Shown piece after piece: positions 21,374 through 44,549 of a stretch of 64,000 nt of DNA. The notes under the pieces are model-generated. The model was given only the letters and a program-made list of their open reading frames with translations. It did not search any database and was not told the DNA's origin. Source of the stretch: an uncultured Gammaproteobacteria bacterium. GTDB lineage: Bacteria > Patescibacteriota > Microgenomatia > Levybacterales > GWA1-39-11. The DNA lies in assembly GCA_964406795.1 (NCBI GenBank), contig CAYOTA010000007.1:5898-69897 (forward strand). The letters run 5' to 3'. Position 1 is the first letter of the stretch; each line of letters opens with the position of its first letter. The position numbers and the translations under genes are program-made.

Positions 21374-21485
21374 TATTTCTCTAAAGTATGCGTTTCTTGA
21401 ATCCAACTTTATCAAAAATAGGGTATTAATACAAGGTTTATTACATTGTTCAACAAATCTTATTGAATAACCTCTTGACAAGAAT

Positions 21486-21512
21486 TAGCAGTCATGTTAT
21501 ATTATTGCTAAG
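21486..21512 (+). promoter_or_regulatory. Degenerate CIRCE-like inverted repeat upstream of hrcA
   Basis: TTAGCAGTC-atgttatat-TATTGCTAA has 3 mismatches to the CIRCE consensus but the correct N9 spacing. Confidence 0.4.
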
Positions 21513-22979: not shown

Positions 22980-24917
22980 ATGAGCAAAATTATAGGAATT
23001 GATTTAGGAACAACAAATTCATGTGTAGCCGTTATGGAGGGTGGAGCGCCAAAGGTTATATTCTCTGCCGAAGGCCGAAATGTTACACCATCTGTTGTTG
23101 ATCCAGTTGACCGTGTGGTAGGTGACGTTGCAAAGCGCCAAATGGTCTTAAAGCCAAAGCGCATTCTCTTCTCCATCAAAAGACTTATGGGTAGACGTTT
23201 TAAGGATAAGTCTGTCCAAGATGATTTAAAACTTTTACCATACACAGTTAAAGAAGGAAAAGAAGGAACAGCAGTTGTAGAAGTGGACGGAAAAACTTAC
23301 ACGCCTCAAGAAGTGTCTGCTATGATTTTGCAAAAATTAAAAGCAGATGCTGAATCATACTTGGGTGACAAAGTAACTCAGGCAGTTATTACAGTTCCTG
23401 CATACTTTGATGACGCAGAGCGCCAAGCAACAAAACAGGCTGGAGAAATTGCCGGACTTGAAGTGTTACGTATTGTAAATGAACCTACAGCAGCAGCGCT
23501 AGCTTACGGGTTGGACAAAAAGCATGCGCATACTATTGCAGTATATGACATGGGAGGCGGAACATTTGATGTTTCCATTCTTGAACTGGGAGACGGCGTG
23601 TATGAAGTAAAAGCAACCAACGGAGATACTCATCTGGGTGGAGATGACTTTGACCAAAAAATAATAGGATATTTAGCTGACGAATTTAAAAAGGAAAACG
23701 GAATTGACTTACGATCTGATCCTCAAGCACTACAAAGACTGAAAGAATCTGCTGAAAAAGCAAAGATTGAATTATCCAGTTCAACAGAGGCAGAAATTAA
23801 CCAGCCATTTATAACTCAAGGTCCCAACGGTCCACTTCACTTAACTATGAAGTTAACACGCGCAAAGCTGGAAGATATTGTTGGAGATCTTATCACCAAA
23901 TCATTTAAACCTGCAGCAGACGCGCTAAAAGATGCAGGCCTTAAGGCAGCTGACATAAATGAAGTTATTTTGGTGGGTGGTATGACTAGAATGCCAAAGA
24001 TTGTTGAAGAAGTTGGAAAATTCTTTGGAAAAGAACCTAATAAGTCAGTTAATCCTGACGAGGTTGTAGCTATTGGTGCGGCAGTCCAAGCAGGAGTACT
24101 AGGTGGAGACGTTAAAGACGTATTACTTTTGGATGTGACCCCATTAACACTTGGAATTGAAACACTAGGCGGAGTAGCTACCCCACTTATTAATAGAAAT
24201 TCCACAATTCCTACCAAAAAATCACAAGTTTTCTCAACTGCAGCTGATAACCAAACTCAAGTAGAAATACATGTAACCCAGGGCGAGCGTCCTATGGCAG
24301 CAGATAACAAATCACTTGGCCGCTTTGTACTTGACGGGATTCCTCCGGCTCCTCGCGGAGTACCACAAGTTGAAGTTACTTTTGACATAGATGCGTCAGG
24401 AATACTGTCAGTAACTGCAAAAGACAATGCGAGTGGTAAAACTCAGAGTATTAAGATTACAGGAGGTACAGGTCTGTCTAAAGATGAAGTAGAAAGGATG
24501 ACAAAAGAGGCTGAGGCAAATGCCGAAGAAGATGAAAAGAAAAAGGAAATGATAGATGTTAGAAATAGGGCTGATTCACTTATTTTTACCGCTGAAAAGT
24601 CATTGAAAGATCTAGGAGATAAAGTTCCAGCTGAGATTAAGACTGATGTTGAGGCAAAAATAGTTGCTCTTAAAGAGGCTATAAAAGGAGAAGATAAAGC
24701 AGATATTGAGGCTAAAACAACAGAACTTTCAGACCATTTATCAAAAATAGGAGAGTCTATGCAGCAACAACAGCCAGGAGGACAGCCTGCAGGTGAGCAA
24801 CCAGGTGCAGAGTCATCAGCAGGTGAAACAGCGAGTGCCGATACAGGTGAAGAAGCGAAAGAGGAAAAAGATAAAAAAGCAAAAGAAGAAGCAGTTGAGG
24901 GAGAAGTAGTAAATTAA
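22980..24917 (+). CDS. dnaK: Hsp70 chaperone DnaK
   Basis: [14 protein letters not shown] and DMGGGTFD; full Hsp70 NBD plus SBD. Confidence 0.97.
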
Positions 24918-25152: not shown

Positions 25153-25395
25153 ATGAAGAAAAAAGCAGATGGATTGGATTTAGTTACCAAAGAATATTTA
25201 GACTTTACTCTTAGTACTAGGTTTGATGATTTTGAAGAAAAAATGAGGATCCTTTTTACTGAAAATAACAGTGTCATTTTTACTCGTATCGATCCATTAT
25301 TGTCTGAGCTAGAAGATAAAAGATTGGATAGAGAAATTACTACGCAAAAATTAGAAGAGCTTGATGCTCGAGTTACAAAACTTGAGAATAGTTAA
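25153..25395 (+). CDS. Small coiled-coil protein, unknown function
   Basis: 80-aa ORF with heptad-like charged repeats and no motif. Confidence 0.3.
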   Translation: MKKKADGLDLVTKEYLDFTLSTRFDDFEEKMRILFTENNSVIFTRIDPLLSELEDKRLDREITTQKLEELDARVTKLENS

Positions 25396-25552
25396 TTTTA
25401 TAGTATAATTATTAATATGAAATTTGCATCATTACCAATGCCTACGCGAGACATCCCTATGGGAATGGGATGTCATGTGCGTGGGAGACAGATGTAGCTA
25501 ATAACTACTAACTAATAACTGAAATAGGCCTCCCACAAAGGGGAGGTTTTTT
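25379..25552 (+). promoter_or_regulatory. Putative promoter plus structured leader ending in an intrinsic terminator 12 nt before the next start codon
   Basis: TTGAGA-16nt-TATAAT at 25379-25406. An 8-bp hairpin GACATCCC/GGGATGTC sits at about 25452-25479. The terminator stem CCTCCC-acaaag-GGGAGG plus T7 is at 25527-25552. TGGGAG at about 25490 could pair with the terminator arm CTCCCA as an antiterminator. Confidence 0.45.
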
Positions 25553-25564
25553 TGTGTTTAAAAT

Positions 25565-25936
25565 ATGACTACAAAAATTGAATTAGGAAGCTATACAACT
25601 ATTCGATTGAAAAACAATGGAGTAAGGTCTGAGGAGTACAGGATATCTTCCGAACGTACTCTTATGGGTAAAATTCCTGACGAGCCTGGCGAGTATGACA
25701 TAGTAGGAGGAAAAATTTCAATGGGGTTTAGCAGTGACAATAATGGGCATAAATTTGTTGATTTAGGATTAGAAGCTAATAATAACCTTGGGCGTTTCTT
25801 AAAGGGCGGAAAAGAGAGAAGCGTGTGCATTTCAAATAAAGGGGAAGGTCATATATTTCTTCCAAAAGGAAGAGTTTTATTTGTTGCAACACAAGCAGCT
25901 GCTGAAACATTTACGGTTATTGATAGGAAAAAATAA
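25565..25936 (+). CDS. Hypothetical protein
   Basis: 123-aa ORF directly downstream of the structured leader, with no motif. Confidence 0.35.
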   Translation: MTTKIELGSYTTIRLKNNGVRSEEYRISSERTLMGKIPDEPGEYDIVGGKISMGFSSDNNGHKFVDLGLEANNNLGRFLKGGKERSVCISNKGEGHIFLPKGRVLFVATQAAAETFTVIDRKK

Positions 25937-25948
25937 TACTTAGGAAAA

Positions 25949-26371
25949 TTATTTTAGTAATTCCATTTTTCCATTTAAAATAATTGGCTCCATGGCTGAG
26001 ATTTCATCATGGAATGGATCGGATTTAGGATATTTGTTCAGTATATACATCTTAATCCCGGCATTAAACGCTATTCCCATTTCCATGAGTGCGTTTCCAC
26101 CTATGTATCCTCTCATTCCATTTTTTGTATTATTTACAATTAAGATTAAATCTGACTGGGCTATTTTATCAAAGTGAAGCTTGATAAATTTTCCTTTGTC
26201 TTTGGGTTTTAGATTTTGCCTGAAATGTTTTGGGTCATAGTCATTTTTCTCCTTCATGATCAAGGCTGAGGCGGGGTAAAGCACTTTATACCCTTTTTTC
26301 TCAAGCTTATCTCCTATTTTTAGCACCTCTTTATAAAATGACATAGAGGAGCAAATCGTAATTGTCATCAT
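25949..26371 (-). CDS. Nucleoside 2-deoxyribosyltransferase-like (Rossmann-like) protein
   Basis: LILIVNN...GNALMEMGIAFNAGIKMYIL resembles the D.GTAFE.GYA.A.GKPV core of the Nuc_deoxyrib_tr superfamily. Tentative. Confidence 0.35.
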   Translation of the reverse strand: MMTITICSSMSFYKEVLKIGDKLEKKGYKVLYPASALIMKEKNDYDPKHFRQNLKPKDKGKFIKLHFDKIAQSDLILIVNNTKNGMRGYIGGNALMEMGIAFNAGIKMYILNKYPKSDPFHDEISAMEPIILNGKMELLK

Positions 26372-26427
26372 GAAGCTAGTATAGCTTAAAAAAGATTGTG
26401 TAGTGTAAGTTTTTTATGCTACTATAA

Positions 26428-26739
26428 GTGTATATGGCTGCAGGTGTGCCTTGCAAAATTAATGAAGTGCAGACAGATTTCGGTTGTTTACCAAATGAGC
26501 CTGTTCCGTTTATCGCAAAATTTTACGGAATAGGACTGGGTCTTATTGGAGGTATAGCTATATTGTTTCTCATCTACGGCGGGTATACGGTTATGACATC
26601 TGCAGGACGCCCTGATAGACTGCAAAAAGGTAAGGAATATATTTATTATTCTATTGCAGGTTTATTATTGGCTATTTTTGGATTTGTCTTTATAGAATTT
26701 ATTGCAGGACCGTTGCTGAGAATTCCCGGATTTTCATAG
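26428..26739 (+). CDS. Small two-TM hairpin protein, VirB2/TrbC-like T4SS pilin candidate
   Basis: 103 aa with an N-terminal Cys pair (CKINEVQTDFGC), then two hydrophobic helices separated by SAGRPDRLQKGKE, matching the TrbC/VirB2-like topology. It lies immediately upstream of the VirB6-like gene. Confidence 0.4.
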   Translation: MYMAAGVPCKINEVQTDFGCLPNEPVPFIAKFYGIGLGLIGGIAILFLIYGGYTVMTSAGRPDRLQKGKEYIYYSIAGLLLAIFGFVFIEFIAGPLLRIPGFS

Positions 26740-26742
26740 TAT

Positions 26743-29157
26743 ATGAAAAAATTTCTGCCCGTATTTATAAGTCTTTGTGCTTTTTTATTCCTTATTTTTT
26801 TAGTAAGTTCTCCTACCTTTGCATCAAATGGTGCGCCTACATTGGCACCCACAATCGCAGCTGGCCAGAAATTGGGTACTGATGCAACAGATAGATTTGT
26901 GCCTGATTCCAATGTTACATTCGTTGGGAAAACTGCAAGTAGAGCAGGTGATTTTTTAGACCTAACACTCAGAAATTATGACTGGGCATGTGTGACAAGA
27001 AATCCAGTAGATAATACCTGTGACAATAGAAACAATCCGCTAGCTGTATTTTGGGCCACTATCAGAAATATTATTTACGCAATTTTGGTAATCGTAGTGT
27101 TGGCCGCAGCCTTTATTATGATTGCAACTCGTGGAAGAAGTTTGACTATCACGCGCTTCATTCCCCGCTTTATACTCATAATTCTTTTAATAACATTTTC
27201 ATTTTCACTTGTTCAGTTTTTGTATCAAATTGCAGATATTATTCAGGGGTTTTTCCTGCGTACCGGAGAGGGGGCTGCTAGGCATATTATCTCAACTCGC
27301 GACCTCATATTTATAGGGTTTGATTACAAAAACTTTACAGGACTCAGGCTCCCGGGTCCGGAAAATGATGAGTCCGCATTTATGACACTTCTTTTAGTAC
27401 GACTTACCGCTGTTACTTATTACGTTATGACAGGAATTTTGATTGTGAGAAAAATTATCTTGTGGTTTTTTATAGTCTTGTCCCCAGTCTTTCCTCTTTT
27501 ATTGTTCTTTAAGATTATTAGAAATACAGCCAAAATTTGGATTGGTGAATTTTTCAGATGGCTGTTGTATGGTCCACTTTTTGCAATTTTCTTAAACGGT
27601 TTAGTTGTTTTATGGAGTAGCGGAAGTGAGACGAATCCTGGTATTCCGCTCGGGTTTACTATGGTAGGCGTAGGGGATCCAGGAAAAGTTATTTATCCAA
27701 CAGCCGTTAATATTTTGATTGGTGGACCTGGTCAAGCATTAGGTTTTAATAATTCAGTAAATACCCAAGACACATTTGCCTTGTATGTTGTAGCTCTCAT
27801 CATGTTATGGGTTGTTATGATTTTGCCGTTTATTCTGCTTAAGATTTTTCTTGACTTTGCCTCAGGATTGTCCATCCAAAACAACAGAGCATTTAAGCAG
27901 ATGTGGAATAAAGTTTCTCCCGTAACGCCTCCTCCGCCGTCTGGCCCACCACCTCCGGCAGGAGCTGGTTTGGCTATGAAAATGCCTTTTGGAGCCTCAA
28001 AAACTATTACTATGCCGGCTAGTACCTATACCAGTACAGGCTTAGCACGTGAGTTGCCGAGATCTGAAAATATTTCAAGATCAGTTCCAACGATTGCAAG
28101 AATTCCTGAAAATATGCGTATCTTACAGCAGGCAAACATAACAATTCCAAGACTAACGGATATTGCGCGTTTCGAAAAAACCATCGAAACACGTGACACA
28201 TCCAAAATTTCTGAAGTAACGCGCATGACAACTTCTCTGCAAAGAATTTCAAACCCTAGCTCAGTTTCCTCATCTGTTGAAAGAAGCAGGTATCAGCAGG
28301 TTAGAACAGAATTGGTGAAAGAACGCCAGAAGGGTAATGTGCTGGCTACATCTATTTTGAATGCAGCAAATGTTACAAACAACACAAATAATAACACTTC
28401 AAGTTCAAGAGTGGGTGGTTTGCATACTCAGTCAATTCAAAACAATTCATCCACAATAAATAATTCTCAAAGCTCAACTCTTAATAATTCACAGAGTTCT
28501 ACTGTTAATAACAGCCAGGTTTCAACAAGTATGTCAACGGGAGTTAAAAATGCATCAACAAATGTAGTAGGAGGCCAAGTTACAAGCGACGGAGTGCCAA
28601 AGACTGCGATGACAACTCCTTCCGCTGTTCATTTACCCGCAGTAAACAAAGTTCAGCAGGTAAGTATTGAGGATTATGAAGAGGTCAAGAAAATGTGGCT
28701 TGAAACATATGAAACATCCAGTCCTCCAACTGACTTAAATGGTAAAAAATCAACCCGGGATGAATGGATTACCAATGATATGAACAATATTAATCAAGCG
28801 GTGTCACTTTTGAATTCAGTGGATCCAATTAGAGTTAATGAGGGTATGAATATGGTCTCAAATATCCTTCCGTTTTTGATGGTTGGAGGATTTTCAAAAA
28901 CAGAGGTTGTTGCCTATCTTAAAGCAAAACTTGAAGCAGGAAAACAAGTAATGTCTTCCGGAACTAATAAAAAAGATGAGGATGACACGCTTCTTGACCG
29001 TAACACTCACACAACACAAGCAAGTAAGTATATGGAAGCACAACAAGCAGCTGCAATTCCAACTGATACGCCAGGCGCCCCAAGAGAAATGAGTGATGAA
29101 ATGTATAAAACTCCTACTGCTATTCAAAATAAGACTGAAGAATCAATTAAAAAATAG
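26743..29157 (+). CDS. VirB6/TrbL (TcpH-like) polytopic membrane protein with long low-complexity C-terminal tail
   Basis: Signal peptide and a Cys-containing exodomain, then 5-6 TM helices with VirB6-like spacing. The following roughly 400-aa tail is N/S/T/Q-rich with a PPPPSGPPPPAG segment. The architecture resembles Gram-positive conjugation TcpH. Confidence 0.45.
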   Translation: MKKFLPVFISLCAFLFLIFLVSSPTFASNGAPTLAPTIAAGQKLGTDATDRFVPDSNVTFVGKTASRAGDFLDLTLRNYDWACVTRNPVDNTCDNRNNPLAVFWATIRNIIYAILVIVVLAAAFIMIATRGRSLTITRFIPRFILIILLITFSFSLVQFLYQIADIIQGFFLRTGEGAARHIISTRDLIFIGFDYKNFTGLRLPGPENDESAFMTLLLVRLTAVTYYVMTGILIVRKIILWFFIVLSPVFPLLLFFKIIRNTAKIWIGEFFRWLLYGPLFAIFLNGLVVLWSSGSETNPGIPLGFTMVGVGDPGKVIYPTAVNILIGGPGQALGFNNSVNTQDTFALYVVALIMLWVVMILPFILLKIFLDFASGLSIQNNRAFKQMWNKVSPVTPPPPSGPPPPAGAGLAMKMPFGASKTITMPASTYTSTGLARELPRSENISRSVPTIARIPENMRILQQANITIPRLTDIARFEKTIETRDTSKISEVTRMTTSLQRISNPSSVSSSVERSRYQQVRTELVKERQKGNVLATSILNAANVTNNTNNNTSSSRVGGLHTQSIQNNSSTINNSQSSTLNNSQSSTVNNSQVSTSMSTGVKNASTNVVGGQVTSDGVPKTAMTTPSAVHLPAVNKVQQVSIEDYEEVKKMWLETYETSSPPTDLNGKKSTRDEWITNDMNNINQAVSLLNSVDPIRVNEGMNMVSNILPFLMVGGFSKTEVVAYLKAKLEAGKQVMSSGTNKKDEDDTLLDRNTHTTQASKYMEAQQAAAIPTDTPGAPREMSDEMYKTPTAIQNKTEESIKK

Positions 29158-29174
29158 ACATACTATCTTTCGTC

Positions 29175-29203
29175 TTGATTAGGTTTTAAAAGTTGCATAC
29201 AAT
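29175..29203 (+). promoter_or_regulatory. Sigma70-like promoter for the clpC-like gene, probably giving a leaderless mRNA
   Basis: TTGATT (29175-80), 17 nt, TACAAT (29198-203), and the ATG at 29210 is 7 nt after the -10. Confidence 0.35.
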
Positions 29204-29209
29204 AAATAT

Positions 29210-31927
29210 ATGTTCGGAAATTTATTTACTCCAAAAAAAGACGATGTGTTAAATGGTTTACCTCAAGATGCGCCTGTAGTGTCTACTGAATCACAAGAGA
29301 CTATGAGTATGGGGCAGCAGTCGGGTATATCCAGCTCAGATCAGGACATGAATGCCGGAGGAATAGATCCCCAAAAAAGGCAAAGTATGTCAGCTCTTTC
29401 CAAACTTGATCCTCGATCTTTGCAGGTTTTGCACCATGCTGAGCAAGAAACTAAACGCGTTCAAGCCTCTCAAATTGGCTCTGAACAGCTGCTTTTAGGA
29501 ATGTTTTATGACGGTGAGATTTTTCAACTTCTAGAAAGTTTCCAAGTGGATGTGGCAAAGCTGACACAGCAAATTCAAAGCAAAGAAAAACCTGGCGGAT
29601 TTACCGGACAGCCCACCATGAGTACTGCCGTAATTCAGATATTTGATGAGGGTTACAAAAGTGCAAAAAAAAGAGGCGCTTCCTTTGTCTCCCCGGAAGA
29701 TATATTGGTTGGATTCTTTGCGGATCCCGCAACAACCTCATTTTTAAAAGCATTTGGAATTGAAAAAGGAAAACTGGATGATAAACTTTCCAAAACAACT
29801 TCTTTTGCCCAATCATCTAGAAAATCAGTGTTGGAAAAATATGGAATTGATCTGACTCAGGAGGCAAAAGATGGAAAGCTTGACCCAGTTGTAGGCCGAG
29901 ACAAAGAAACAGAGCGTTTAATTCACATTTTATTAAGACGCACAAAAAATAACCCTATTATTATAGGTGAAGCTGGAGTTGGAAAAACGGCTATTGTTGA
30001 GGCACTTGCACAAAAAATAGTAGAAGGATCAGTTCCTCATGATCTACTAGACAAAAGAATTATTCAGCTTGAATTGTCATCCCTTGTGGCAGGTGCGTCT
30101 CACAGAGGTGAGTTTGAGGAGCGACTTCAGGATGTAATTCATGAAACCCAGGCTTCAAATGGGAAAATTATTTTGTTTATAGACGAGATACACACGCTCA
30201 TTGGCGCTGGAGACACGGGCGGAGCACTTGACGCGTCCAATATCATAAAGCCATATTTGGCCCGTGGACAGCTGCAACTTATCGGAACTACCACTACGGC
30301 CGAATACAGAAAGCATTTTGAAAAAGATAAGGCATTTGAAAGACGTTTCCAGTCAGTGTTAGTAGATGAACCTGAAGAAGAAGTAGCGCAGCAAATGTTG
30401 GACGTACTGCGTCCTAAATATGAAAAATTTCACTCTGTAGTTATAACCCCAGAAGCAATTGAGGCAGCAGTTCATTTGTCAAAAAAATATATTGGTGAGC
30501 GCTATCTTCCGGATAAGGGAGTTGACCTATTGGATGAGGCTGCCGCTGAGGTAAAACTTCAGCACACTGAGGGCAAGCGTGCAGATAATAATGTGGTGAA
30601 AGCTGACATTGAAAAAGTGGTTGCAGCTTGGACCGGAATTCCTATAACCAGACTTACTGAAGATGAAAGTCAAAAACTAATTCATTTGGAAGACACAATT
30701 CACAAGCGCTTTATAGATCAAGAAGAAGCTGTAGGATCAGTATCTGAGGCTGTAAGACGCGGAAGAATTGGACTCTCGGCCGCCAACAGACCCATTGCGT
30801 CATTTATTTTCCTAGGCCCTACGGGTGTAGGTAAAACAGAGTTAGCTAAAACGCTTGCTGAAATTTTATTTGGCCGCGATGACTTACTGGTCAGACTTGA
30901 TATGTCTGAATATATGGAAAAGCATGAGGTAGCAAAGCTTATAGGTGCACCTCCTGGGTATGTAGGATATGAGGAGGGTGGACAGTTAACGGAGGCGGTA
31001 CGTGCAAAACCCTATTCTATTGTGTTGCTGGATGAAATTGAAAAAGCTCATCCTGATGTGTTTAATATTCTTTTGCAGCTTTTGGAAGATGGTCGCTTAA
31101 CTGACAATAAAGGAAACACAATTTCATTTAAGAACACTATCATAATTGCGACTTCAAACATTGGAAGCTCAGTTATTCAGCAGACATTATTAACACAAGC
31201 ATCCAACGGAACGCAAGTAGTATCCCCGGAAGAAGAAGCTAAAAAGTATTCTGAACTGTCAGCAACCCTTATGGAAGAGTTGAGAAAATTCTTTAAACCG
31301 GAGCTGTTAAATCGTTTTGATGACATAGTTATGTTTAAACCCTTACGAATGCGCGATATGGCCCAAATTGCAAAATTGGGAATAGGAAAAACACAAAAAT
31401 TACTGGAAGAGCAAAAAATCCATTTGGAAATAACAGAGAAAGCAATTGGAATATTGGCAAAAGAAGGATACGATCCAGTTTATGGTGCGCGACCTTTAAG
31501 ACGCCTTGTCCAGACCGCAATTGAAAATCCCATTGCAGTTCTATTAATCAACAAAACATTTGTGCCGGGGGATATTATTAAAATCGATTATGATGATGCA
31601 AAGTCTGAGTTTACCTTTACAAAAGGTGTACCTGCGGTTGCAGGGCCTCAACCATCTATATCTGAGACAGCACAAAATCCAGTTGTTCAGCCTCAATACG
31701 TGAATCAAGCACCTCAAGCTTCAGGTGTGTCAGCTAATCCATCAGGTATTGCCCAACCGCAACAGACTCAGCCCATGAATGCTATGCCTCAGCAGCCAGT
31801 AGATGATCCAAATGCAGGAATTTTGTCACAGATTGCGCAGGAACACACAGTAACACCTATACCATCAGCACCAAATGGTACTGCTCCTCAGCCTGGAGTT
31901 GGCGGAACCATGATGCAACCCGCATAA
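29210..31927 (+). CDS. clpC: ClpC-like class-I AAA+ unfoldase (Clp_N, D1, short linker, D2) with disordered N- and Q/P-rich C-terminal extensions
   Basis: Two Clp_N repeats; D1 Walker [10 protein letters not shown] and Walker B ILFIDEIH; D2 [12 protein letters not shown] and LLDEIEKAH; GAR sensor-2. There is no long ClpB M-domain. No [LIV]G[FL] tripeptide occurs at the ClpP-loop position ([22 protein letters not shown]). Confidence 0.85.
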
Positions 31928-31949
31928 GTATTCCTTATAATAAGGAGGT

Positions 31950-33881
31950 ATGTGGAAAGAAAAGATTTTACCGTTTCTTAAAAAATATTACCCTTTTTTA
32001 CTCCTTATTCCCCTTGTAATACTCGCATTGTTTTTTGTTCTTAGAGTGTTTGCACGTGACATAGTGGTAAATCCTGGGGGAAATCCGTTTCCCAAAGGCT
32101 CCGAGTATTCAAATGACCAAATAATTGTGAAGTATAGAAAAGGACAGTCACCTGAAGAACTTAAAAAAGATGGAAGACTGGAACAGGAAAAGTCACTTGC
32201 AGATACGCTAGTAGCATTAGGTGTGGAGTCTCAGCAAAAACTATTTACCTCAGTGGATGATTTTTTGAAAAACTATTATTTACTGTACTTAAAGCAGGGA
32301 ACAAACATTCAAGATTTATATAAGAAATTGTCAGATGTTCCTGAGATAGACTCTATAACACCTGACTATATTTTAAAAACTGATAAGCCTGATAAGGAAA
32401 CAACTAATGTACCCAGTGTGCAGTCACCACCCATCAGTGATGAAGAACCAAACGACCCGTATTTTGTGGACGGGCAGCAATGGGATATGAATTCTATAGA
32501 TATGAAAAAAGCGTGGAATATAAAAAGAGCTGGAGCTGAAACTGTAGTAGCTGTGATCGACACAGGCGTTGATTATAATCATCCTGATTTGGTGGGGAAG
32601 GTAATAAAGGGAAAAAATTATATTAATAACACAGATGATCCAATGGATGATCATGGGCATGGAACTCATGTAGCAGGGACTATAGGCGCAATTACAAATA
32701 ACGGAATTGGTATTAGCAGCGTTTCATGGGGAGCCAAAATATTAGCAATTAAAGCGTGCGATAATAATGGGGATTGTATAACATCAAACGTAGTAAGAGG
32801 CATATCATACGCTTTAAGCCAAGGTGTTAAAGTTATTAATATTAGTATTGCGGGGGTTGGGTCATGTACACGCGAAAACTTTTTTGGGGGGGACCGTGTG
32901 TATGAAGACGTTATAAAAGAGGCAAATAGTAAGGGCGCAATTATGATAGTTGCTGCCGGAAATAATAACCAAGATGCGAAAAACGAAGTTCCTGGTGCAT
33001 GTGAAGGTGTTGTAGCGGTTGGAGCCACCAACCAATCAAATGAAAGGTGGGTAAGTAGTGACTCTACGGGATCTAATTTTGGAGACAAAATTGATTTATC
33101 GGCACCTGGGTCGCCCATTCTTTCAACAAGTGTCCAAAATGGGTACAGCATAAGAAATGGTACGTCTATGGCAGCTCCTCATGTTTCCGGTGTGGCTGCT
33201 TTATTATTATCATTTAATAAAAATTTGTCATCCAGTGAACTTAAAAAATGTATAGTTGAAAGTGCTGGAAAGATAGAATCTGACCGCTACATTGGTGGGC
33301 TTTTAAATGCGTACAATGCGCTTATGAGGTGTGGTGCAAGTAATCCTCAAAGTATATCTGCGCTAACACCCACATCTATCCCCTCAATTCTTCCAACCGC
33401 GCCAGACGAGATTATTGGAGGTAACAATATAGATAATTATTCTATCTCAGGCACTATATTTATAGATCAGAATAATAATGGTTTGTTTGACAGTTCTGAA
33501 AAAACTCTGGGTGGAGTGCAGGTACTAGTCTCCCCCACAGACCCTTCAACCAGTATACTTGCCAATCCGCGTGGATTTTATTTTTTTAATGACTTAGGCA
33601 GGCCGGATGATTATTTAGTGTCATTAGTAATTCCAGGAGTAAGCGCAGTTAATCTTCCCACCAGAACTGTTACGTTAAGTAACACAATTAAATCAGCACG
33701 TATAAATATTCCTGTATCTCCCTTGGCACTTCCCTCCCCTTCCCCGAGGCCTACAAATATGGCTCAAAATGGTGCTCCTTCTCCTACCTCATCTCAAAAT
33801 GTACCGCAAGGTTGCTACTATGATCCTGGATGTTTTAGTAGTAATCAGTCGGTTCAGGCATGCTCTTTTACGTGTGACTGA
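31950..33881 (+). CDS. Membrane-anchored subtilisin-like (S8) serine protease with C-terminal SdrD-B/CnaB-like domain and Cys-rich tail
   Basis: Catalytic triad motifs AVIDTGVDYNHPDL, HGHGTHVAGT and GTSMAAPHVSG. N-terminal TM plus propeptide. C-terminal ...GTIFIDQNNNGLFDSSEKTLGGVQV... B-type fold and a CYYDPGCFSSNQSVQACSFTCD tail. Confidence 0.85.
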   Translation: MWKEKILPFLKKYYPFLLLIPLVILALFFVLRVFARDIVVNPGGNPFPKGSEYSNDQIIVKYRKGQSPEELKKDGRLEQEKSLADTLVALGVESQQKLFTSVDDFLKNYYLLYLKQGTNIQDLYKKLSDVPEIDSITPDYILKTDKPDKETTNVPSVQSPPISDEEPNDPYFVDGQQWDMNSIDMKKAWNIKRAGAETVVAVIDTGVDYNHPDLVGKVIKGKNYINNTDDPMDDHGHGTHVAGTIGAITNNGIGISSVSWGAKILAIKACDNNGDCITSNVVRGISYALSQGVKVINISIAGVGSCTRENFFGGDRVYEDVIKEANSKGAIMIVAAGNNNQDAKNEVPGACEGVVAVGATNQSNERWVSSDSTGSNFGDKIDLSAPGSPILSTSVQNGYSIRNGTSMAAPHVSGVAALLLSFNKNLSSSELKKCIVESAGKIESDRYIGGLLNAYNALMRCGASNPQSISALTPTSIPSILPTAPDEIIGGNNIDNYSISGTIFIDQNNNGLFDSSEKTLGGVQVLVSPTDPSTSILANPRGFYFFNDLGRPDDYLVSLVIPGVSAVNLPTRTVTLSNTIKSARINIPVSPLALPSPSPRPTNMAQNGAPSPTSSQNVPQGCYYDPGCFSSNQSVQACSFTCD

Positions 33882-33887
33882 TAAAAC

Positions 33888-35417
33888 ATGCATAGATTAG
33901 GTAAAAAATATTTATTCCTTAAAGATCGAAAAGCGTTTATTTTAATTAGCGTGTTTTTGTTTTTAGGTATAGTTGTCTCTACGCTTTTCTTAAGTGCAAA
34001 ACATAGTACTAATGAGCAGGGTACAGCAGATGTTAAAAGTGGAACATGGGAAATAACAGTTGCATATAAAACAGAAACAAAAAAATTAGAACTTAAAAAA
34101 CTGCAGCTGCTATCTGAAAAAATTAATTCTGACAGCCGTACTGCATTATTTTCACCGTATACACTTTCTGTGATTGGAAAAAGTAACACAGTGCTTTATT
34201 CATCTCCGGTATTTATTGCAACAGAATACATATTTAGCATTTATGCCGGCTCGCGGGAATCACCAGGATTTAGCAGTTTTTCACAAGATGTTCCGCCAGT
34301 ACTTCCCAGGCCCCCAGCTGAGTTGGAGACTGTGTTATACGCGCCTTTAATTGCAGATTCATCTGAAATGGTAATTAAAAATGACGGAAAACAAGAATTA
34401 TCTATAAATTTGCCGGGTATAACAGGAATCTCTCAAAGCTCAAAAATTGCTCAGTCAGTATGCGGACCTTTACAGGTAGTGTTTATGAGTGACGGTTATA
34501 CTGATTTTCAAAAATTTCATCAAGATGTTGAGAGATTGAAGCAGACATTCTTATCAGCAGATCCGTATACTAAGAAACCAAATATGTTTGACTTCAAGAC
34601 AGTGGATAACGCACAAAGTCTTGGTTGCATGCAGAGCCTTGGATGTATTCGTAACCCAGATGTTCCCCGTATTGGTCGGCAAGCGTTTCCTCAGGCATCA
34701 AAATTTATAGTTATTGCAGATATTTCATATAATAATCCACCTCAGGGAGCCGCACTGGGAGTTATAAATGGGATAGGGGGGAATGTTATGGCTTTTCCAA
34801 GAAGTGCATATGTGCAGGGTCGCGAACTTGTAAATGAGATAGCAGTGCATGAATTTTTGGGTCATGGGGTTGGATTTTTGTACGATAGATACGTAGTAAA
34901 AAACAACACTCAGAGTGTAAAACGTAACTGTTCCAATAATCCAGCTGGGGAGTCGTTTTGGTCAGCGGCAGGTGTAACCCAAACTTACCCTGGGTGCTTT
35001 GCTGAGTCAAGATTTGCGCCAACCCCAAATGACTGTACGACCCCGGGACATCCAACACTCGTAAGTGGTGGTTCATTAAGTTCAGTTATGAGCGCAGGGG
35101 GATGTGGAGCAACACAATTTGATACCGTTGAAAAATATTGGATTGAAAACTATATTTTTCCAAAATATTCTAGCTGTAGTGATCCCACTACCACACTACG
35201 TCCTACGATGACAAACAGTCCAAGTGTTTCTCCAACTGGAGTTGTGGTGTGTAATCCGGACGGTGTAGGAGGGATTGATTTTGCTGATTTGCGCCTGGCA
35301 AGGCGTGAAATTGCTGGCATAGCTTCTACCTCACACGCCGCATGTATGACTGGTGGGCAGAGCACAGTATTTGCTGATTTGCGCAAAATACGGCGTATAA
35401 TTGCTGGTTTGGAATAG
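33888..35417 (+). CDS. Secreted zincin-like metallopeptidase candidate (M64/IgA-peptidase-like motif) with C-terminal dockerin-like repeats
   Basis: N-terminal [18 protein letters not shown] resembles the M64 HEFGHsfggLaDEY motif but with one extra residue (HExxxH). The C-terminus [23 protein letters not shown] ... [13 protein letters not shown] looks like a dockerin loop-helix duplication. Confidence 0.45.
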
Positions 35418-35464
35418 TAATTTTCCGCCCCATTTTTAAGGCTAAATTTGATAAAATATACAGT

Positions 35465-36331
35465 ATGGCAGCAAAAAAAGATTTTTATGAGACATTGGGT
35501 GTTTCAAAATCCTCAACTCCAGAAGAATTAAAACGAGCCTACAGAAAATTAGCGCTGGAGTATCATCCTGATAAAAATAAAACAAAAGAGGCTGAAGAGA
35601 AGTTTAAAGAAATAAACCAGGCATATGAAGTATTATCTGATCCTCAAAAGCGTACCACATATGATCAAGTTGGTCATGCTGGGTTTGAGGGAGGAGCAGG
35701 GGCTGGCGGCCCATTTGGCGGCCAGGGTGGGCAATATGGTCCATTTACTTACTCGTATTCGAATGGTGGAAACGCGTCCGGATTTGATTTTGGCCAGGGT
35801 GGTGCTGATCCATTTGAAATATTTGAGCAATTCTTTGGGGGTGGATTTGCCAAAAGAAAACCAAGATACAGTATTGCGATAGATTTTCTTGAAGCAGTCA
35901 AAGGGGTTACAAAAAATGTTTCAATTGACGGAAAACCACAAAACATAAAAATTCCGGCAGGAGTGGATAACGGCTCAAGGATACAATTTCCTGAGTATGA
36001 GGTTGTTGTGTCAGTAAGATCCAATAGTAAGTTTCACCGCGAGGGAAATGACATTTTAACTGAAAAGCAAATTTCATTGTCTCTCGCAATTTTAGGGGGT
36101 ACAGTAGATGTTGAGACTGTGCATGATACGGTAAAACTTAAAGTATCAGCTGGTACTCAGCCTGATTCGCTCATTCGTATCAAAGGAAAAGGCGTACCGC
36201 GCGTAAGAGGGGGTGGAAGCGGGGATCATTTTGTGCGAATTAAAGTTGTGATTCCTGCAAAAATTTCAGGAAGACAAAAAGAACTAATTGAAGAATTTGA
36301 TAAAGAAAGCAAAAAACGCACCTGGTTTTAA
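35465..36331 (+). CDS. dnaJ: J-domain co-chaperone, class B (DnaJ/CbpA-like, no zinc-finger domain)
   Basis: J-domain with HPD (YHPDKNK), a G/F-rich region and CTD I/II. The CxxCxGxG repeats are absent. Confidence 0.8.
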
Positions 36332-36378
36332 TCTTCTAAGCTTGATTTACGCGTCACCTCCCTCTACACTATATCTAT

Positions 36379-36705
36379 ATGGGTATTCTGCTCTATCCCT
36401 TTGTAGTGCTTTTATTTTGGTATAAAGATGGTCTCTTGTCTATCTTTTCATTTTTCGGATCACTTAATGATTATTCTCTAAGGCTATTCTCACTTCCCGG
36501 TCTTTTTGCCACATACTTCAGGCCGCTTAAAAACGAATACAGAAAAAACCTTATTTTGTTTTCAATTCTATTTGGAATGGTTGTTAAAACATTTCTTATC
36601 ATAGGTTCATTGACTATTTTTTCCATAATTTTACTGTGTGAACTAATCGTCATTAGCATATATTTAATTTTCCCGCTTTTGCCAATTATTTTATTTTTAG
36701 GATGA
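36379..36705 (+). CDS. Small 3-TM membrane protein, translationally coupled to the downstream membrane ClpC paralog
   Basis: 108 aa and hydrophobic, with an ATGA stop/start overlap with 36702. Confidence 0.4.
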   Translation: MGILLYPFVVLLFWYKDGLLSIFSFFGSLNDYSLRLFSLPGLFATYFRPLKNEYRKNLILFSILFGMVVKTFLIIGSLTIFSIILLCELIVISIYLIFPLLPIILFLG

Positions 36706-39071
36706 AACTATTTAATTATTACGACTTTTATAAGTTGTACTCTCTGGTACCCATGAGGGTTTTGCGTGTTTTAATTTTGTTGGGATTAGCTAGTCTTATA
36801 ATTCTTAACTATGAAGAGTTTTTATTGTTTAGACTTTTTCTCATAATTTATACACTCTTTCTTATTAACGAGATATTTATTTACTTTAAATTAAACAAGT
36901 CTTTCCCCCGATTTTTAGTTATAGATAATAAAGCAAATTTTGAAGGCTCCACTCTTTTTAAAACAAAGAAAATTATGTCAGGAAGGAATCTTTTCTCCAA
37001 TCTTCATGACTTATTCAAAGAAATAGACGTAGCATTTCTTATAGAAAGAATTGGCGGAACCATGCAAAGTTATGAGCAGGTAGATCTAAAAATCTTATAT
37101 GAAAAATCTTTAGAAGTGGCTCGGCGATCTGGGGGAAAATACATAACATCCGCCGATGTTGCGGTCGCATATTTACTTATCACGGAAGAAAAAACAAAAT
37201 ATTTGTTTCAGCAAGAAATAACAGAAAACGATTTATATGAAATACTTATGTGGGCACGTGGGAGGTATGGTTTAGATCGAGCTAAATCAAGCACATTGCA
37301 CTTCACCGGTTATGGGGTTTTTGACTTCTTTATTTATGGATGGGATACATTAATTAAAGAATATTCGTATGACATTTCTTTAAGTGTAATCAATAAACAT
37401 GAAACGCCAATTGTTGGCCGGGAAAAAGAGTTTCATGCAATGGTATCTATATTATCTAAAAATACAGCAAATAATGTTATTTTACTTGGGGAGCCAGGTG
37501 TTGGAAGATCGGCGTTAGTGCGCAAATTTGCACTTGAAGCATATAGAGACTCTCACTTTGTGCTGGCACACACAAAAGTATATGAGTTATTGGCAGACAG
37601 ACTACTTTCAGGAGTGCAAAACACGGGGGACCTAGAGTCTCGGTTATCTCTCTTGTTAGCTGAACTGGAGCATTCAGGGAATATTATTTTGTTTATTCAA
37701 AATATAGAAAATATATTTGGTGGCGGTGGGTTTAACTTTGATATGTCAGGTATTCTGTTTCAATACTTAAAAAGTGGGCGGGTGCAGATAATTGGAACAA
37801 CAACTCAATCTTTCTATAAAACCGTGCTTGAGAAAAAACCCAGCATATCTAATTTATTTGAAAAAATAAGAATTGAGGAGCCTGACCGGGCAAATATTTT
37901 CCAGATGATTGCTTCACATGTGGATATTATTGAGCATGAGTATCAACTGTCTGTCTCATATAAAGCAATTCATGAATCCGTTGAGTTATCTTCTACATAC
38001 ATGCCTGATTTATATCTTCCGGGAAAGGCAATAAATCTTTTATCTGATGTTGCGGCCCAAGCCAGAATGAATGGACAAAAAAATGTCTCCAAAGATGACG
38101 TAACGCGTGTTATTCAGGAGAAGACAAATATAATCCTTGAAAAGCCTACGGAAGAAGAGAAGAAAACGCTATTGTCGCTTGAGGCAGATTTACATAAAAG
38201 AGTTATTGGGCAAAATGAAGCAGTTGATGCTGTTGCAAAAGCCATCAGACGACTGCGTTCAGGATTTTCTCAGCATAACAGGCCCATTTCAGTATTTTTG
38301 TTTTTAGGCCCAACAGGGGTTGGAAAAACTGAGACAGCAAAAGCACTGGCTGCATTATATTTTGGCGATGAAAATTCCATGATCAGGCTTGATATGTCTG
38401 AGTATCAAACTCAAAATGAAGTAGAGCGTTTACTCGGTGGAATTCCTGGAGGGGAAGAACTTGCTAACTCATTGCCGGAAGCAGTAAGACAGCATCCATT
38501 TTCACTCCTTCTTTTAGATGAGTTTGAAAAAGCACATCCTCGTATTTTGGATATTTTTCTTCAAATTTTTGAAGATGGACGTCTTACTGATAACCAGGGT
38601 AAAACAGTTTCATTTAAAAACACAATTATTATTGCAACTTCCAACGCTGGATCAGAACTAATAAGACAAATGGTTAAAATGGGCCTAAACGGAGATAATA
38701 TGAAAAATGACTTGGTTGAGGCATTGCTTTCAAATGGCCAATTTAAACCAGAATTACTTAATAGATTTGATGACGTTATCGTGTTTAAACCGCTTACTGT
38801 TGAAGAAGCTTCTCAAATAGCCGGTCTATTGCTCTCACATTCACTAAAAACATTAGAAGATGATCAAATATATCTTACATTTGATGCAAGTGTTATCGAA
38901 AAGATAGTAAGGGAGTCTTATGACCAGGAGGCAGGAGCACGTAATATGAGAAGGTATATAGGTTCTACAATCGAGGATTTTATATCTAAACTTATTCTTG
39001 AGAATAAACTCGCTCGAGGAACACACGCAGTAATTGGTACTGATGTAAACGGAAATTATATACTACAATAA
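36702..39071 (+). CDS. Membrane-anchored ClpC paralog with degenerate (pseudo-ATPase) D1 and intact D2
   Basis: Two N-terminal TM helices and a Clp_N-like repeat. The D1 Walker A is GEPGVGRSA (K to R, T to S), the Walker B is ILFIQNIEN (DE to QN), and the Arg-finger region is altered. D2 is intact ([26 protein letters not shown]). An MGL tripeptide sits at the ClpP-loop position (KMGLNGDN aligned to ClpC KHLGFNVQD). Confidence 0.75.
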   Translation: MKLFNYYDFYKLYSLVPMRVLRVLILLGLASLIILNYEEFLLFRLFLIIYTLFLINEIFIYFKLNKSFPRFLVIDNKANFEGSTLFKTKKIMSGRNLFSNLHDLFKEIDVAFLIERIGGTMQSYEQVDLKILYEKSLEVARRSGGKYITSADVAVAYLLITEEKTKYLFQQEITENDLYEILMWARGRYGLDRAKSSTLHFTGYGVFDFFIYGWDTLIKEYSYDISLSVINKHETPIVGREKEFHAMVSILSKNTANNVILLGEPGVGRSALVRKFALEAYRDSHFVLAHTKVYELLADRLLSGVQNTGDLESRLSLLLAELEHSGNIILFIQNIENIFGGGGFNFDMSGILFQYLKSGRVQIIGTTTQSFYKTVLEKKPSISNLFEKIRIEEPDRANIFQMIASHVDIIEHEYQLSVSYKAIHESVELSSTYMPDLYLPGKAINLLSDVAAQARMNGQKNVSKDDVTRVIQEKTNIILEKPTEEEKKTLLSLEADLHKRVIGQNEAVDAVAKAIRRLRSGFSQHNRPISVFLFLGPTGVGKTETAKALAALYFGDENSMIRLDMSEYQTQNEVERLLGGIPGGEELANSLPEAVRQHPFSLLLLDEFEKAHPRILDIFLQIFEDGRLTDNQGKTVSFKNTIIIATSNAGSELIRQMVKMGLNGDNMKNDLVEALLSNGQFKPELLNRFDDVIVFKPLTVEEASQIAGLLLSHSLKTLEDDQIYLTFDASVIEKIVRESYDQEAGARNMRRYIGSTIEDFISKLILENKLARGTHAVIGTDVNGNYILQ

Positions 39072-39075
39072 ATAT

Positions 39076-40077
39076 ATGGAAAAAATTGCGGTTTTTGAAA
39101 TAGAAGAGTGGGAAAAGGAATTTATAAAAAATGCGCTTCCTCAAAAAGAGTTTATATTTTTTGATCGTCCGTTGCGACTTGAGGATGTAGGTGCGATAAA
39201 AGACATTAGTGGGCTTGTTGTATTTATTTATTCTCAAGTTACAAAAGAAGTTATAGATGCGCTTCCAAATCTAAAATTTGTAACAACCATGTCCACAGGT
39301 TTTGACCACATTGACCTAGAAACATGTAGGCAAAGACAAATAACCGTATGTAATGTTGCTGGGTACGGAGAGATTACTGTTGCAGAGCACACGTTTGCGC
39401 TTCTTCTGGCTATTTCCAGACGACTTATTGAGTCATATACCAGGGTTAAAGATGGATATTTTTCACCAGAAAATCTAACGGGTTTTGATTTGAATGGAAA
39501 AACATTAGGAGTAGTTGGCGTAGGAAGTATAGGTGCACACGTAATTAAAATTGCGCATGGTTTTGGGATGAATGTAATAGCATACAAAAGAACACCTGAT
39601 CCCGAGTTGGAAAAAAAACTAGATTTTAAAATTGTAGATCTTGATACGCTTTATAACACATCAGATGTGGTGTCATTGCATGTTCCCTATACAAAGGAAA
39701 ATCATCATATGATTAATGCAGAAGCAGTTTCAAAAATGAAAAAAGGTGTAGTTATTCTTAATACATCTCGCGGTCCGTTAATTGATACAACCGCTTTATT
39801 AAAATTTCTTGAAGAAGGAAAAATTGGTGGAATTGGCTTAGATGTTTGTGAGAACGAACCTATGTTACGAGAGGAAAAGCAGATATTATCAAAAGAGTTT
39901 AATAAGGAAGACTTATTGTGTTTGCTTGAAGAAAAGATGCTTTTAAATTATAAAAACGTGATCGTTACTCCTCATAACGCATTTAATAGCCGCGAAGCGC
40001 TGCAGAAAATTTTAACAACCACTATTGAAAACATTAACACATGTTTAAAAGGAAGTCCTCAAAATGTAGTTTCTTAG
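39076..40077 (+). CDS. D-isomer-specific 2-hydroxyacid dehydrogenase (D-lactate/phosphoglycerate dehydrogenase family)
   Basis: GVVGVGSIGAHV NAD-binding Rossmann motif and a catalytic R...E...H arrangement (TSRGPLID, TPHNAF). Confidence 0.8.
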   Translation: MEKIAVFEIEEWEKEFIKNALPQKEFIFFDRPLRLEDVGAIKDISGLVVFIYSQVTKEVIDALPNLKFVTTMSTGFDHIDLETCRQRQITVCNVAGYGEITVAEHTFALLLAISRRLIESYTRVKDGYFSPENLTGFDLNGKTLGVVGVGSIGAHVIKIAHGFGMNVIAYKRTPDPELEKKLDFKIVDLDTLYNTSDVVSLHVPYTKENHHMINAEAVSKMKKGVVILNTSRGPLIDTTALLKFLEEGKIGGIGLDVCENEPMLREEKQILSKEFNKEDLLCLLEEKMLLNYKNVIVTPHNAFNSREALQKILTTTIENINTCLKGSPQNVVS

Positions 40078-40421: not shown

Positions 40422-40439
40422 GAGTTAAGGATAATATTT

Positions 40440-41036: not shown

Positions 41037-41086
41037 GTGGGTATTATGCGTGAGAAGAGCGTGAAAGTCAAACGTTTACAAATACT

Positions 41087-42190: not shown

Positions 42191-42226
42191 GTATTTGGGG
42201 CAAGAGTAGGCAGGGGAACAATTTAG

Positions 42227-44455: not shown

Positions 44456-44490
44456 ATTTGTCAGTTTGTTTATTTTTATTTTCTAATTTA

Positions 44491-44540
44491 AGCTGTAGGG
44501 TGTCTTGAATTAGGTGCCCTTCAAGTGCACCCTACAACTT
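44491..44540 (-). terminator. Intergenic nested hairpin (possible terminator/attenuator) between two repeat-protein genes
   Basis: GTAGGGTG...CACCCTAC 8-bp outer stem enclosing a GGTGC...GCACC inner stem. There is no clean U-tract, so its function is uncertain. Confidence 0.3.
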
Positions 44541-44549
44541 AATGAAGTT

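Follow-up and report, generated by a model that had tools for sequence, protein, structure and literature searches.

Patescibacteria, or the candidate phyla radiation (CPR), make up a large, mostly uncultured share of bacterial diversity, and their cultivated members are attached to hosts. Their type IV secretion systems (T4SSs), related to the monoderm MPF-FATA conjugation systems, are among the closest described systems to the locus reported here; an example is SEML1_0006-0019 of Southlakia, the one lineage tested genetically, in which the T4SS genes and a pilin array were essential and an essential Hsp20 gene adjoined that array. A survey of Patescibacterial T4SSs placed virB4 near dnaA and described VirB6 as 'scarce' in Microgenomatia, with no mention of Clp proteins or chaperones (PMC12102498). 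The other systems against which the locus was compared include the HrcA/CIRCE (controlling inverted repeat of chaperone expression) operon of Gram-positives, with the order hrcA-grpE-dnaK-dnaJ, and ClpV (TssH) of type VI secretion, the precedent for an Hsp100 protein serving a secretion apparatus. ESX (type VII) loci in turn carry the AAA+ ATPase EccA, the polytopic membrane protein EccD and a mycosin, which is a membrane-anchored subtilisin. The locus studied here lies at 26428-40077 of a 64,000-nucleotide (nt) stretch of contig CAYOTA010000007.1 (GenBank assembly GCA_964406795.1), which is called the window throughout. This block belongs to a conserved supra-operon of Levybacteria (Microgenomatia, CPR), in which an invariant core, made up of a pilin, a VirB6-fold protein and an Hsp100 protein without the ClpP loop, is joined to the heat-shock operon. 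A slot of swappable exoproteases comes next, and a pair of genes for a membrane miniprotein and a membrane-anchored Hsp100 paralog (ClpTM) is frequent but optional, being present in about two thirds of the genomes.

The whole analysis was computational and based on gene context. In the literature searched, whose coverage is incomplete and which took in the T4SS survey, the Southlakia genetics paper and the FESNov paper, no published link of Clp/Hsp100 proteins or of the dnaK operon to CPR pilin or VirB6 genes was found, and the cluster is real, conserved and apparently undescribed. An initial annotation, made from the letters of the window, had claimed that no operon of this kind was known; this agrees with the missing Clp-CPR pilin/VirB6 link, whereas for the mixture of an AAA+ protein, a polytopic protein and a subtilisin the ESX loci are a precedent.

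A conserved supra-operon in Levybacteria

The window is chromosomal DNA from a CPR bacterium and includes housekeeping genes (groEL, metG, pyrimidine synthesis, tgt/queA and nusA), and the nearest relatives of its proteins came from records titled Levybacteria or Levyibacteriota. Taxon labels of relatives are those of the record titles, many of which read the placeholder 'uncultured Gammaproteobacteria'. The sample consisted of 80 loci with a VirB6-like gene, the best 80 of 205 relatives (GTDB species representatives), which were fetched with an alignment of VirB6-like N-domains; the window proteins were then placed on the loci by tblastn, with +/-10 kb of readable sequence around each match. 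These 80 loci belong to one order-level clade, with titles that read mostly Levyibacteriota or Patescibacteria.

The order of the core was kept among these relatives and the flanks were not. The pilin gene adjoined the VirB6-like gene in 75/76 loci, with a median gap of 3 nt, and the Hsp100 gene (Clp905 in the window) came next after the VirB6-like gene in 68/68 loci, with a median gap of 50 nt. A dnaK gene was located upstream, within 6 kb of the VirB6-like gene, in 60/62 loci and hrcA upstream in 60/62, whereas the left outside flank (aspartate carbamoyltransferase) was kept in only 6/62. The position of dnaJ varied, as it lay before the pilin gene and directly after dnaK in 38 loci, and after the protease slot, as in the window, in 29. 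The pilin gene followed dnaJ at 95 nt or less in 26/37 loci and dnaK at less than 100 nt in 10/34.

In the window, the open reading frame (ORF) calls gave nine plus-strand genes in close succession between 26428 and 40077, with spacers that are, in order, 3, 52, 22, 6, 47 and 47 nt, a 4-nt overlap and 4 nt, and no strong terminator was found inside this run. The initial annotation had described fourteen plus-strand genes from 25153 to 40077 with very short spacers and ATGA coupling. Its spacing (gaps of 3-52 nt, and an ATGA overlap at the miniprotein and Clp paralog genes) and its end agreed with ours, but its start had to be moved to 26428 and its gene count reduced to nine, because a terminator and a minus-strand gene intervene.

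The first gene of the run (26428..26739, plus strand, as are all the genes of the run) encodes a leaderless VirB2-type pilin of 103 residues (PF18895), which reached 28.9 bits against the Pfam T4SS_pilin model (cutoff 26.6) and 33.4 bits, below the cutoff, against the NCBIfam Mbov_0395 pilin-like model. It was predicted to form a hairpin of two transmembrane (TM) segments, at residues 32-50 and 79-97, supporting the VirB2-like two-TM pilin proposed earlier. The aligned orthologues share two conserved N-terminal cysteines, a conserved basic loop of the pattern TSxGxPxxLxxGK on the cytoplasmic side, and the motif IPGF at the C-terminus, and a signal peptide was absent from all of them; the pilin-domain protein of one relative had a weak TrbC/VirB2 match as well. 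Extra pilin-like genes, divergent from hrcA, were located by tblastn ~1-4 kb upstream of it, beside metG and tatD, in six relatives (L073, L077, L079, L082, L083 and L085), which thus have pilin genes on both sides of the heat-shock operon. In the four of these extra proteins that were tested (151-441 residues; L077, L079 and L082), a C-terminal PF18895 domain was confirmed by Pfam in every case.

The second gene (26743..29157) encodes an 804-residue polytopic membrane protein, in which tests with hidden Markov models (HMMs) and of fold upheld the earlier VirB6-like call and identified a VirB6/TrbL-type platform protein. A signal peptide and an exposed N-domain are followed by a membrane core of five helices (~100-375) and then by a tail of ~430 residues; this tail contains two helical subdomains that are conserved, together with a linker of low complexity, and from its topology it would lie in the cytoplasm. 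VirB6-like proteins of up to ~2000 residues and Clp proteins of up to ~1760 residues occur in some relatives (L032, L047, L048, L062, L163, L166 and others).

With the Patescibacterial T4SSs this locus shares the PF18895 pilin family, a VirB6-fold gene directly after the pilin gene, a chromosomal location without a relaxase or coupling protein nearby (no Pfam match to either in the window scans), and, in relatives, pilin arrays and pilin-domain fusions. It differs from them in that VirB4, VirB3 and VirB8 were not found, either in the window or in the relatives' cluster, and in that Hsp100 ATPases and the dnaK operon adjoin it instead of dnaA and dnaN. No T4SS ATPase family was detected in the ~60 larger ORFs of the window that were scanned, the rest of the genome lying outside the search. 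No VirB4 was present in the clusters of the relatives, where the mapped genes account for the whole cluster, and in the region upstream of hrcA, where relatives were checked for VirB4 and further T4SS genes, only extra pilin-domain genes, metG and tatD turned up. Some relatives have extra ORFs between dnaK and the pilin gene; those of one locus (L060) were considered as ATPases and rejected, as they have N-terminal hydrophobic anchors and no P-loop by eye, and are surface-type proteins.

The third gene of the core (29210..31927) encodes Clp905, a ClpC-derived Hsp100 protein of 905 residues with the Pfam domains Clp_N, AAA, AAA_lid_9, AAA_2 and ClpB_D2-small, and with low-complexity tails of ~70 residues at the N-terminus and ~95 at the C-terminus. 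Its best PDB match was S. aureus ClpC (6em9), and its scores were below every NCBIfam equivalog cutoff; that against the ClpB model was 883.6 (cutoff 1232), with the match split in two pieces. Like ClpC and ClpB, it has an N-domain and two AAA+ rings (D1 and D2), and both Walker A/B pairs and the GYVG loop of D2 were kept in the 66 orthologues. Unlike them, it has no M-domain, with only ~20 residues between DLLDEAAA and WTGIP in all the orthologues, and the D1 pore loop, a stretch of 12 residues, has His in the place of Tyr (66 orthologues). The ClpP-docking loop, (I/L/V)-G-(F/L), was absent from Clp905 and the 66 orthologues, and in the alignment with S. aureus ClpC the position of the AGF tripeptide reads QASNGTQ, so that the earlier description of a ClpC-like unfoldase without the docking tripeptide was borne out. 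The absence of this loop is a feature shared with ClpB and ClpV; in contrast to the ClpV precedent, no type VI genes are present here.

Upstream of the core lie hrcA (21595-22317, Pfam HrcA), grpE (22355-22891, Pfam GrpE) and dnaK (22980-24917, Pfam HSP70, 851 bits), all on the plus strand. They had been left out of the initial annotation, and with them the block is seen to be an extension of an HrcA/CIRCE heat-shock operon. A CIRCE-like HrcA operator with three mismatches (21485..21511, plus strand) is located upstream of hrcA and overlaps the best sigma-70-like promoter (21475-21503; 11/12 in the promoter scan). Scanning the window with the CIRCE consensus gave two matches against 0.01 expected, the second and better one (8327-8353, one mismatch) being ~55 nt upstream of an Hsp20/alpha-crystallin gene (8409-8858). 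The presence of CIRCE sites at both hrcA and hsp20 suggests that the HrcA system is functional in the source organism, with a regulon that seems to include hsp20. A CIRCE-like site was found less than 400 nt upstream of hrcA in 48/80 related loci; none was seen directly before the pilin or Clp905 genes in these loci, the other sites being upstream of hrcA or further upstream. The likeness to the operon of Gram-positives thus covers the gene order, the CIRCE-like operators before hrcA and the Hsp20 gene, and the position of dnaJ directly behind dnaK in the 38 relatives mentioned above. The differences are that here the operon is lengthened by membrane, Hsp100 and protease genes, that dnaJ of the window is placed 10 kb downstream, in the extension, and that a terminator and a reverse gene divide the two halves.

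The link between the Hsp100 and the pilin is the deepest-reaching one of the cluster. In a locus of Daviesbacteria (L086), a Clp905 orthologue with the same pore loop and no M-domain comes first, is overlapped by 4 nt by a pilin gene, and is followed by more pilin genes and the VirB6-like gene, with no dnaK operon nearby. Metagenomes were also scanned for a DNA pattern encoding a 12-residue stretch, which gave 120 contigs, and counts were made on the subset in which the Clp was less than 60% identical to that of the window and had at least 1.5 kb of sequence downstream (28 clusters at 80% identity). In these distant-Clp contigs, a pilin-HMM match was found within 1.5 kb downstream on the same strand in 27/41, and the start of the pilin gene overlapped the Clp stop in 15/32, by exactly 4 nt in 11; three of the four downstream genes tested were above the Pfam PF18895 cutoff. 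The source names put this clade in Roizmanbacteria/Microgenomates. Its Clp proteins have an M-domain of ClpC length, a C-terminal zinc ribbon and no ClpP loop, so that the lack of an M-domain was rejected as a mark of the whole pilin-linked Hsp100 family, and their gene neighbours are of the housekeeping kind (EF-G, RpoC, recF-like and UMP-kinase-like genes). No Hsp100-pilin link was found outside Microgenomatia, the Clp of Southlakia being far from its T4SS. In Roizmanbacteria-type contigs, a Peptidase_C39_2-like protein of ~360 residues is encoded divergently from the Clp-pilin pair (by Pfam in L089 and L181, with the same ORF pattern in L130 and L202) and is followed by small proteins without known family, which places another peptidase family beside the Hsp100-pilin pair.

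Protease slot and membrane-anchored Hsp100 paralog

Two surface enzymes occupy the slot of the window. The first, encoded at 31950..33881, is an S8 subtilase with an N-terminal membrane anchor (Peptidase_S8, 189 bits), as had been read before; it shows the triad motifs DTG, HGTH and GTSMAAP in its translation, an SdrD_B-like domain and a Cys-rich C-terminus. The second (33888..35417) is an HExxH zincin, also with an N-terminal anchor (TM 17-35), and is weakly M64-like: it scored 19.9 bits against Pfam M64 (cutoff 26) and matched PDB 3p1v with an E-value of 0.004 in an alignment that takes in the HEFxGH stretch, and homologues occupy the same slot in ~10 loci. It had been proposed as an M64-like zincin with a dockerin-like tail; the HExxH motif and a weak likeness to M64 were recovered, but the dockerin tail found no support, the last 65 residues matching no Pfam family at E<=5. 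Neither was any link found to the dockerin- or LPXTG-bearing proteins of the window, which had been suggested as substrates.

The slot, defined as the interval from Clp905 to dnaJ or the miniprotein gene, was examined in 40 loci, and 40 slot proteins were scanned against Pfam. S8 peptidases (15/40), thermolysin M4 (3/40), M28 (1/40) and proteins with cohesin domains (3/40) were found in addition to the M64-like ones, and almost all of the slot proteins had an N-terminal signal anchor. The slot holds from zero to three anchored exoproteases and is empty in five genomes; an S8 or M64-like protein came after Clp905 in 28/38 loci. The presence of differing protease families in one position argues for selection for a surface protease at this place, and shows that the protease is not a fixed subunit, where the initial annotation had made the proteases part of the system. 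The cohesin domains in slot proteins of three relatives are a hint at cohesin-dockerin surface assemblies in the lineage.

As in the type VII (ESX) loci, genes for an AAA+ ATPase and for polytopic membrane proteins stand together here with one for a membrane-anchored S8 protease, which had its best score against the mycosin model (NCBIfam TIGR03921). Unlike them, that score (184.5 bits) is below the cutoff of 278.75, the anchor is N-terminal here instead of C-terminal, no EccC/FtsK-type ATPase or WXG100 protein appeared in the Pfam scans of the window, in which no ESX genes are present, and the protease is replaceable and dispensable.

After the slot, the window carries dnaJ (35465..36331), which encodes a class-B DnaJ, as first annotated (DnaJ 100 bits, DnaJ_C 108 bits, no match to the zinc-finger domain). 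The next two genes encode a membrane miniprotein of 108 residues (36379..36705), with the conserved motif FKPxKNEYRKGL and no Pfam family, and ClpTM (36702..39071), an Hsp100 paralog of 789 residues (Pfam AAA, AAA_lid_9, AAA_2 and ClpB_D2-small; best PDB match ClpC) with a two-TM hairpin and a family-specific N-domain. The predicted two-TM anchor would place the ATPase in the cytoplasm. The coupling of these two genes noted earlier, a 4-nt ATGA overlap in the window, was mirrored by a median gap of 1 nt in 23 relatives. The miniprotein gene was found after Clp905 in 24/38 loci and the pair was missing from the cluster in 14/38; it also occurred in unrelated contexts (L003, L004 and L005), always with overlapping codons, beside type IV pilus genes in one case and among glycosyltransferases in another.

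The motifs of ClpTM were surveyed in 64 full-length homologues (41-100% identity). In all 64, the Walker B motif of D1 is QN instead of DE and the GYVG loop of D2 is changed to PG--G, a two-residue deletion that takes out the tyrosine; no aromatic residue is seen to be conserved in the pore loop of D1, and the ERRF stretch of D1, which carries the arginine finger in ClpB and ClpC, is replaced. The Walker A/B motifs and sensor-2 GAR of D2 are intact in these homologues, and the window protein keeps NRFD at the D2 arginine-finger position. In the window, D1 reads GVGRS at Walker A, an exception within the family, most members of which keep the lysine, and IQNIEN at Walker B, in agreement with the mutationally dead D1 reported before. 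The role of tethered unfoldase given to this paralog was not supported, with both pore-loop tyrosines missing family-wide and the QN change in D1; by its motifs, ClpTM is predicted not to be a canonical threading unfoldase and cannot be assumed to unfold substrates. An 'MGL' tripeptide that aligns with the ClpC AGF loop was considered as a ClpP-docking site and discarded, since it is not conserved in the family. The N-terminal 235 residues of ClpTM matched only 60 of 1.84 billion cluster representatives, and the full-length matches carry this region N-terminally in proteins of ~780-830 residues.

No membrane-anchored bacterial Hsp100 was described in the literature searched, an absence of evidence only, given the incomplete coverage. 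Functional analogies, with no homology claimed, can be drawn with Torsin and its LAP1/LULL1 partners and with Msp1-type AAA+ proteins. As in those, an Hsp100-D2-like ATPase at the membrane is without an aromatic pore residue and has a small membrane partner, whereas ClpTM is bacterial, has two rings with a degenerate D1 and its own two-TM anchor, and keeps NRFD and GAR in D2.

Genes flanking the core

Between dnaK and the pilin gene, the window contains a lineage-specific insert with genes on both strands (25153..26371), which is outside the conserved system. It opens with orf80 (25153-25395, plus strand, 80 residues), absent from relatives, downstream of which is a terminator with a 9-bp GC-rich stem and a T-run (25526-25549). 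In the region 25382-25558, a promoter-like site, TTGAGA-16-TATAAT (11/12 match), precedes a structured RNA of ~147 nt (25412-25558), a long stem that ends in the terminator and folds at -46.3 kcal/mol (z -4.06 against shuffles). This RNA belongs to no Rfam family, and neither the Rfam nor the tRNA scan gave any match across the window; it may act as a small RNA or as a leader of the attenuator type for orf123, in an insert that is lacking in most relatives. The plus-strand orf123 (123 residues), between the terminator and orf140, was found in one relative. The minus-strand orf140 (25949-26371, 140 residues) has a weak match to Nuc_deoxyrib_tr (nucleoside 2-deoxyribosyltransferase-like, E 0.01) and was present only in the three nearest relatives (L006, L008 and L009), in the same position and with 65-67% identity. 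The initial annotation had counted two small hypothetical genes and a structured leader as parts of the system; they were set aside here, orf80 and orf123 being missing from almost all relatives.

The run closes with a D-2-hydroxyacid dehydrogenase gene (39076..40077; Pfam 2-Hacid_dh_C, 192.9 bits), which adjoined ClpTM in 4/13 GTDB loci with enough sequence, and also in L001 and L003, and is therefore a frequent and not a constant neighbour. A plus-strand ORF at 40081-40428 was rejected as spurious, the true gene being on the minus strand (40074-40421) and encoding a membrane protein of 115 residues of the Phage_holin_4_2 family (Pfam 103.8 bits); several relatives (L003, L034, L050 and L066) also have tblastn matches to this region close to the cluster, on the opposite strand. 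Beyond it, on the minus strand, are a sortase gene (40440-41036) and three genes for large proteins of 367, 742 and 419 residues (region 40440-45809). No significant Pfam family was assigned to these three, the LPXTG-anchor match of the 367-residue protein being at chance level (E 0.33), and all three are likely to be surface proteins or substrates of the sortase. Other surface-related genes of the window, at 53754-54323 (minus strand), 8941-10596 and 7422-8333, encode an SLT_3 lysozyme-like protein, a 551-residue protein with a Dockerin_1 domain, and a protein with PEGA and SH3_3 domains.

Possible roles of the module

From the gene order and motifs described above, we tentatively propose that an Hsp100 working without ClpP attends to a surface-filament module of VirB2 and VirB6 and is expressed together with DnaK, DnaJ and GrpE and with surface proteases, a reading that we consider a serious possibility, if somewhat short of a probable one. 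Clp905 would be a remodelling motor dedicated to the membrane module of pilin and VirB6-fold protein, acting from the cytoplasm on the basic loop of the pilin, on the VirB6 tail, or on both, and it may extract pilin subunits, recycle them or hand them over at the VirB6 platform. In canonical type IV systems, membrane dislocation of pilin is a job ascribed to VirB4. DnaK, DnaJ and GrpE, made from the same locus, would assist, and the anchored proteases would be co-expressed surface enzymes, with a part in the maturation of surface proteins or in the breakdown of nutrient proteins or proteins on the host surface. ClpTM and the miniprotein would form an ATP-driven membrane regulator or scaffold, and not a threading unfoldase.

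Several points weigh against this proposal, for which the support is gene context throughout. The tail of the VirB6-like protein showed no recognisable adaptor fold, no CIRCE site precedes the pilin operon in the window, and there a terminator and a reverse gene part the triad of pilin, VirB6-like and Clp905 genes from dnaK. In Southlakia (Saccharibacteria), neither ClpP nor the Clp ATPase is essential, and both are encoded far from the T4SS. Clp905 may be a general ClpB-like disaggregase, in which case its adjacency to dnaK would be ordinary, and a VirB4 encoded elsewhere in the genome may power the pilin/VirB6 module instead of the Hsp100 (PMC12102498).

A first alternative is an explanation by co-regulation alone, in which housekeeping chaperones (the DnaK system and a ClpB-like Hsp100) and surface genes are transcribed together, as a regulon for stress or host contact, without physical coupling, and the pilin and VirB6-fold proteins serve a VirB4-type T4SS encoded elsewhere; we see this as conceivable, though rather doubtful. 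Hsp100 genes are commonly regulated by heat shock, and the T4SS survey discussed above, with virB4 near dnaA and VirB6 'scarce' in Microgenomatia, fits a VirB6 apart from virB4. In TM7x, T4SS genes and most chaperones were both higher at the initial encounter with the host (PMC10768705). The restriction of CIRCE to the region upstream of hrcA (the 48 loci), and never before the pilin or Clp genes, was also counted in its favour, and any HrcA control of these genes would therefore need read-through. Against it stand the stop-start overlap of Clp and pilin genes in distant lineages, which suggests co-ordinated synthesis, the cohesion of the triad in Daviesbacteria with no dnaK operon nearby, and the conserved specialisations of Clp905 (Tyr to His in D1, with the M-domain and ClpP loop lost). 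That the PF18895 protein is a two-TM receptor that recruits the Hsp100, and no filament subunit, with the 108-residue protein doing the same for ClpTM, appears unlikely to us. Both pairs would then work in membrane-protein quality control, by extraction and disaggregation at the membrane, which suits the pairing of each Hsp100 gene with a gene for a small membrane protein, often with overlapping codons, and a pilin without signal peptide whose sole cytoplasm-facing part is a short conserved basic loop. Yet the protein is above the T4SS_pilin cutoff, the VirB6-fold gene follows it at a median of 3 nt, and in relatives there are arrays of pilin genes and fusions with a pilin domain, as is typical of surface filaments that vary. 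In R388, the system that has been solved, VirB6 forms the platform for pilus assembly, at the base of the pilus, and not a stand-alone protein channel.

This role of VirB6 also bears on the machine put forward by the initial annotation, in which Clp unfoldases feed a VirB6-like channel and exported proteases process what passes, with dockerin or LPXTG proteins as possible substrates, and which we judge very unlikely. The idea is partly supported, and the block withstood the refutation that the annotation itself had named: its parts are syntenic in many Levybacteria and its pilin and VirB6 calls stood. In addition, Clp905 keeps both ATPase sites and the D2 pore-loop tyrosine, and the slot proteins are anchored outside the membrane. 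Against it count ClpTM, predicted to be without both pore-loop tyrosines and D1 hydrolysis (64/64), missing from the cluster in 14/38 relatives and found in unrelated contexts, and the protease slot, empty in five genomes; the tethered unfoldase, the proteases as a fixed part and the dockerin/LPXTG link found no support. As for a gene order without any functional unit, arisen by chance and frozen by vertical inheritance in one lineage, the origin of all 80 best loci from one order-level clade is what such a history would give, but the flanks were shuffled (6/62) while the core was kept at 95% or more, dnaJ moved and stayed within the cluster, protease families were swapped in one slot, and the Hsp100-pilin pair recurs in another order and context in Daviesbacteria- and Roizmanbacteria-type contigs. 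Chance juxtaposition is already disfavoured by these observations, and we hold it to be extremely improbable.

A stronger form of our proposal, in which a VirB2/VirB6 filament of Microgenomatia has an Hsp100 as its cytoplasmic motor, replacing VirB4 or beside it, with ClpTM and the miniprotein as a new membrane regulator, and is wired into the heat-shock operon, must be called a long shot. If the coupling of Hsp100 and pilin is functional, it would be the second example of an Hsp100 dedicated to a surface apparatus, after ClpV of type VI secretion, and the assembly and recycling of surface filaments in genome-reduced bacteria would become testable. The locus shows the place of the VirB6-fold protein in Levybacteria, between the dnaK operon and an Hsp100, and ClpTM, a small and sharply defined family with a predicted active D2 without pore-loop tyrosines, poses a clear mechanistic question for AAA+ biology.

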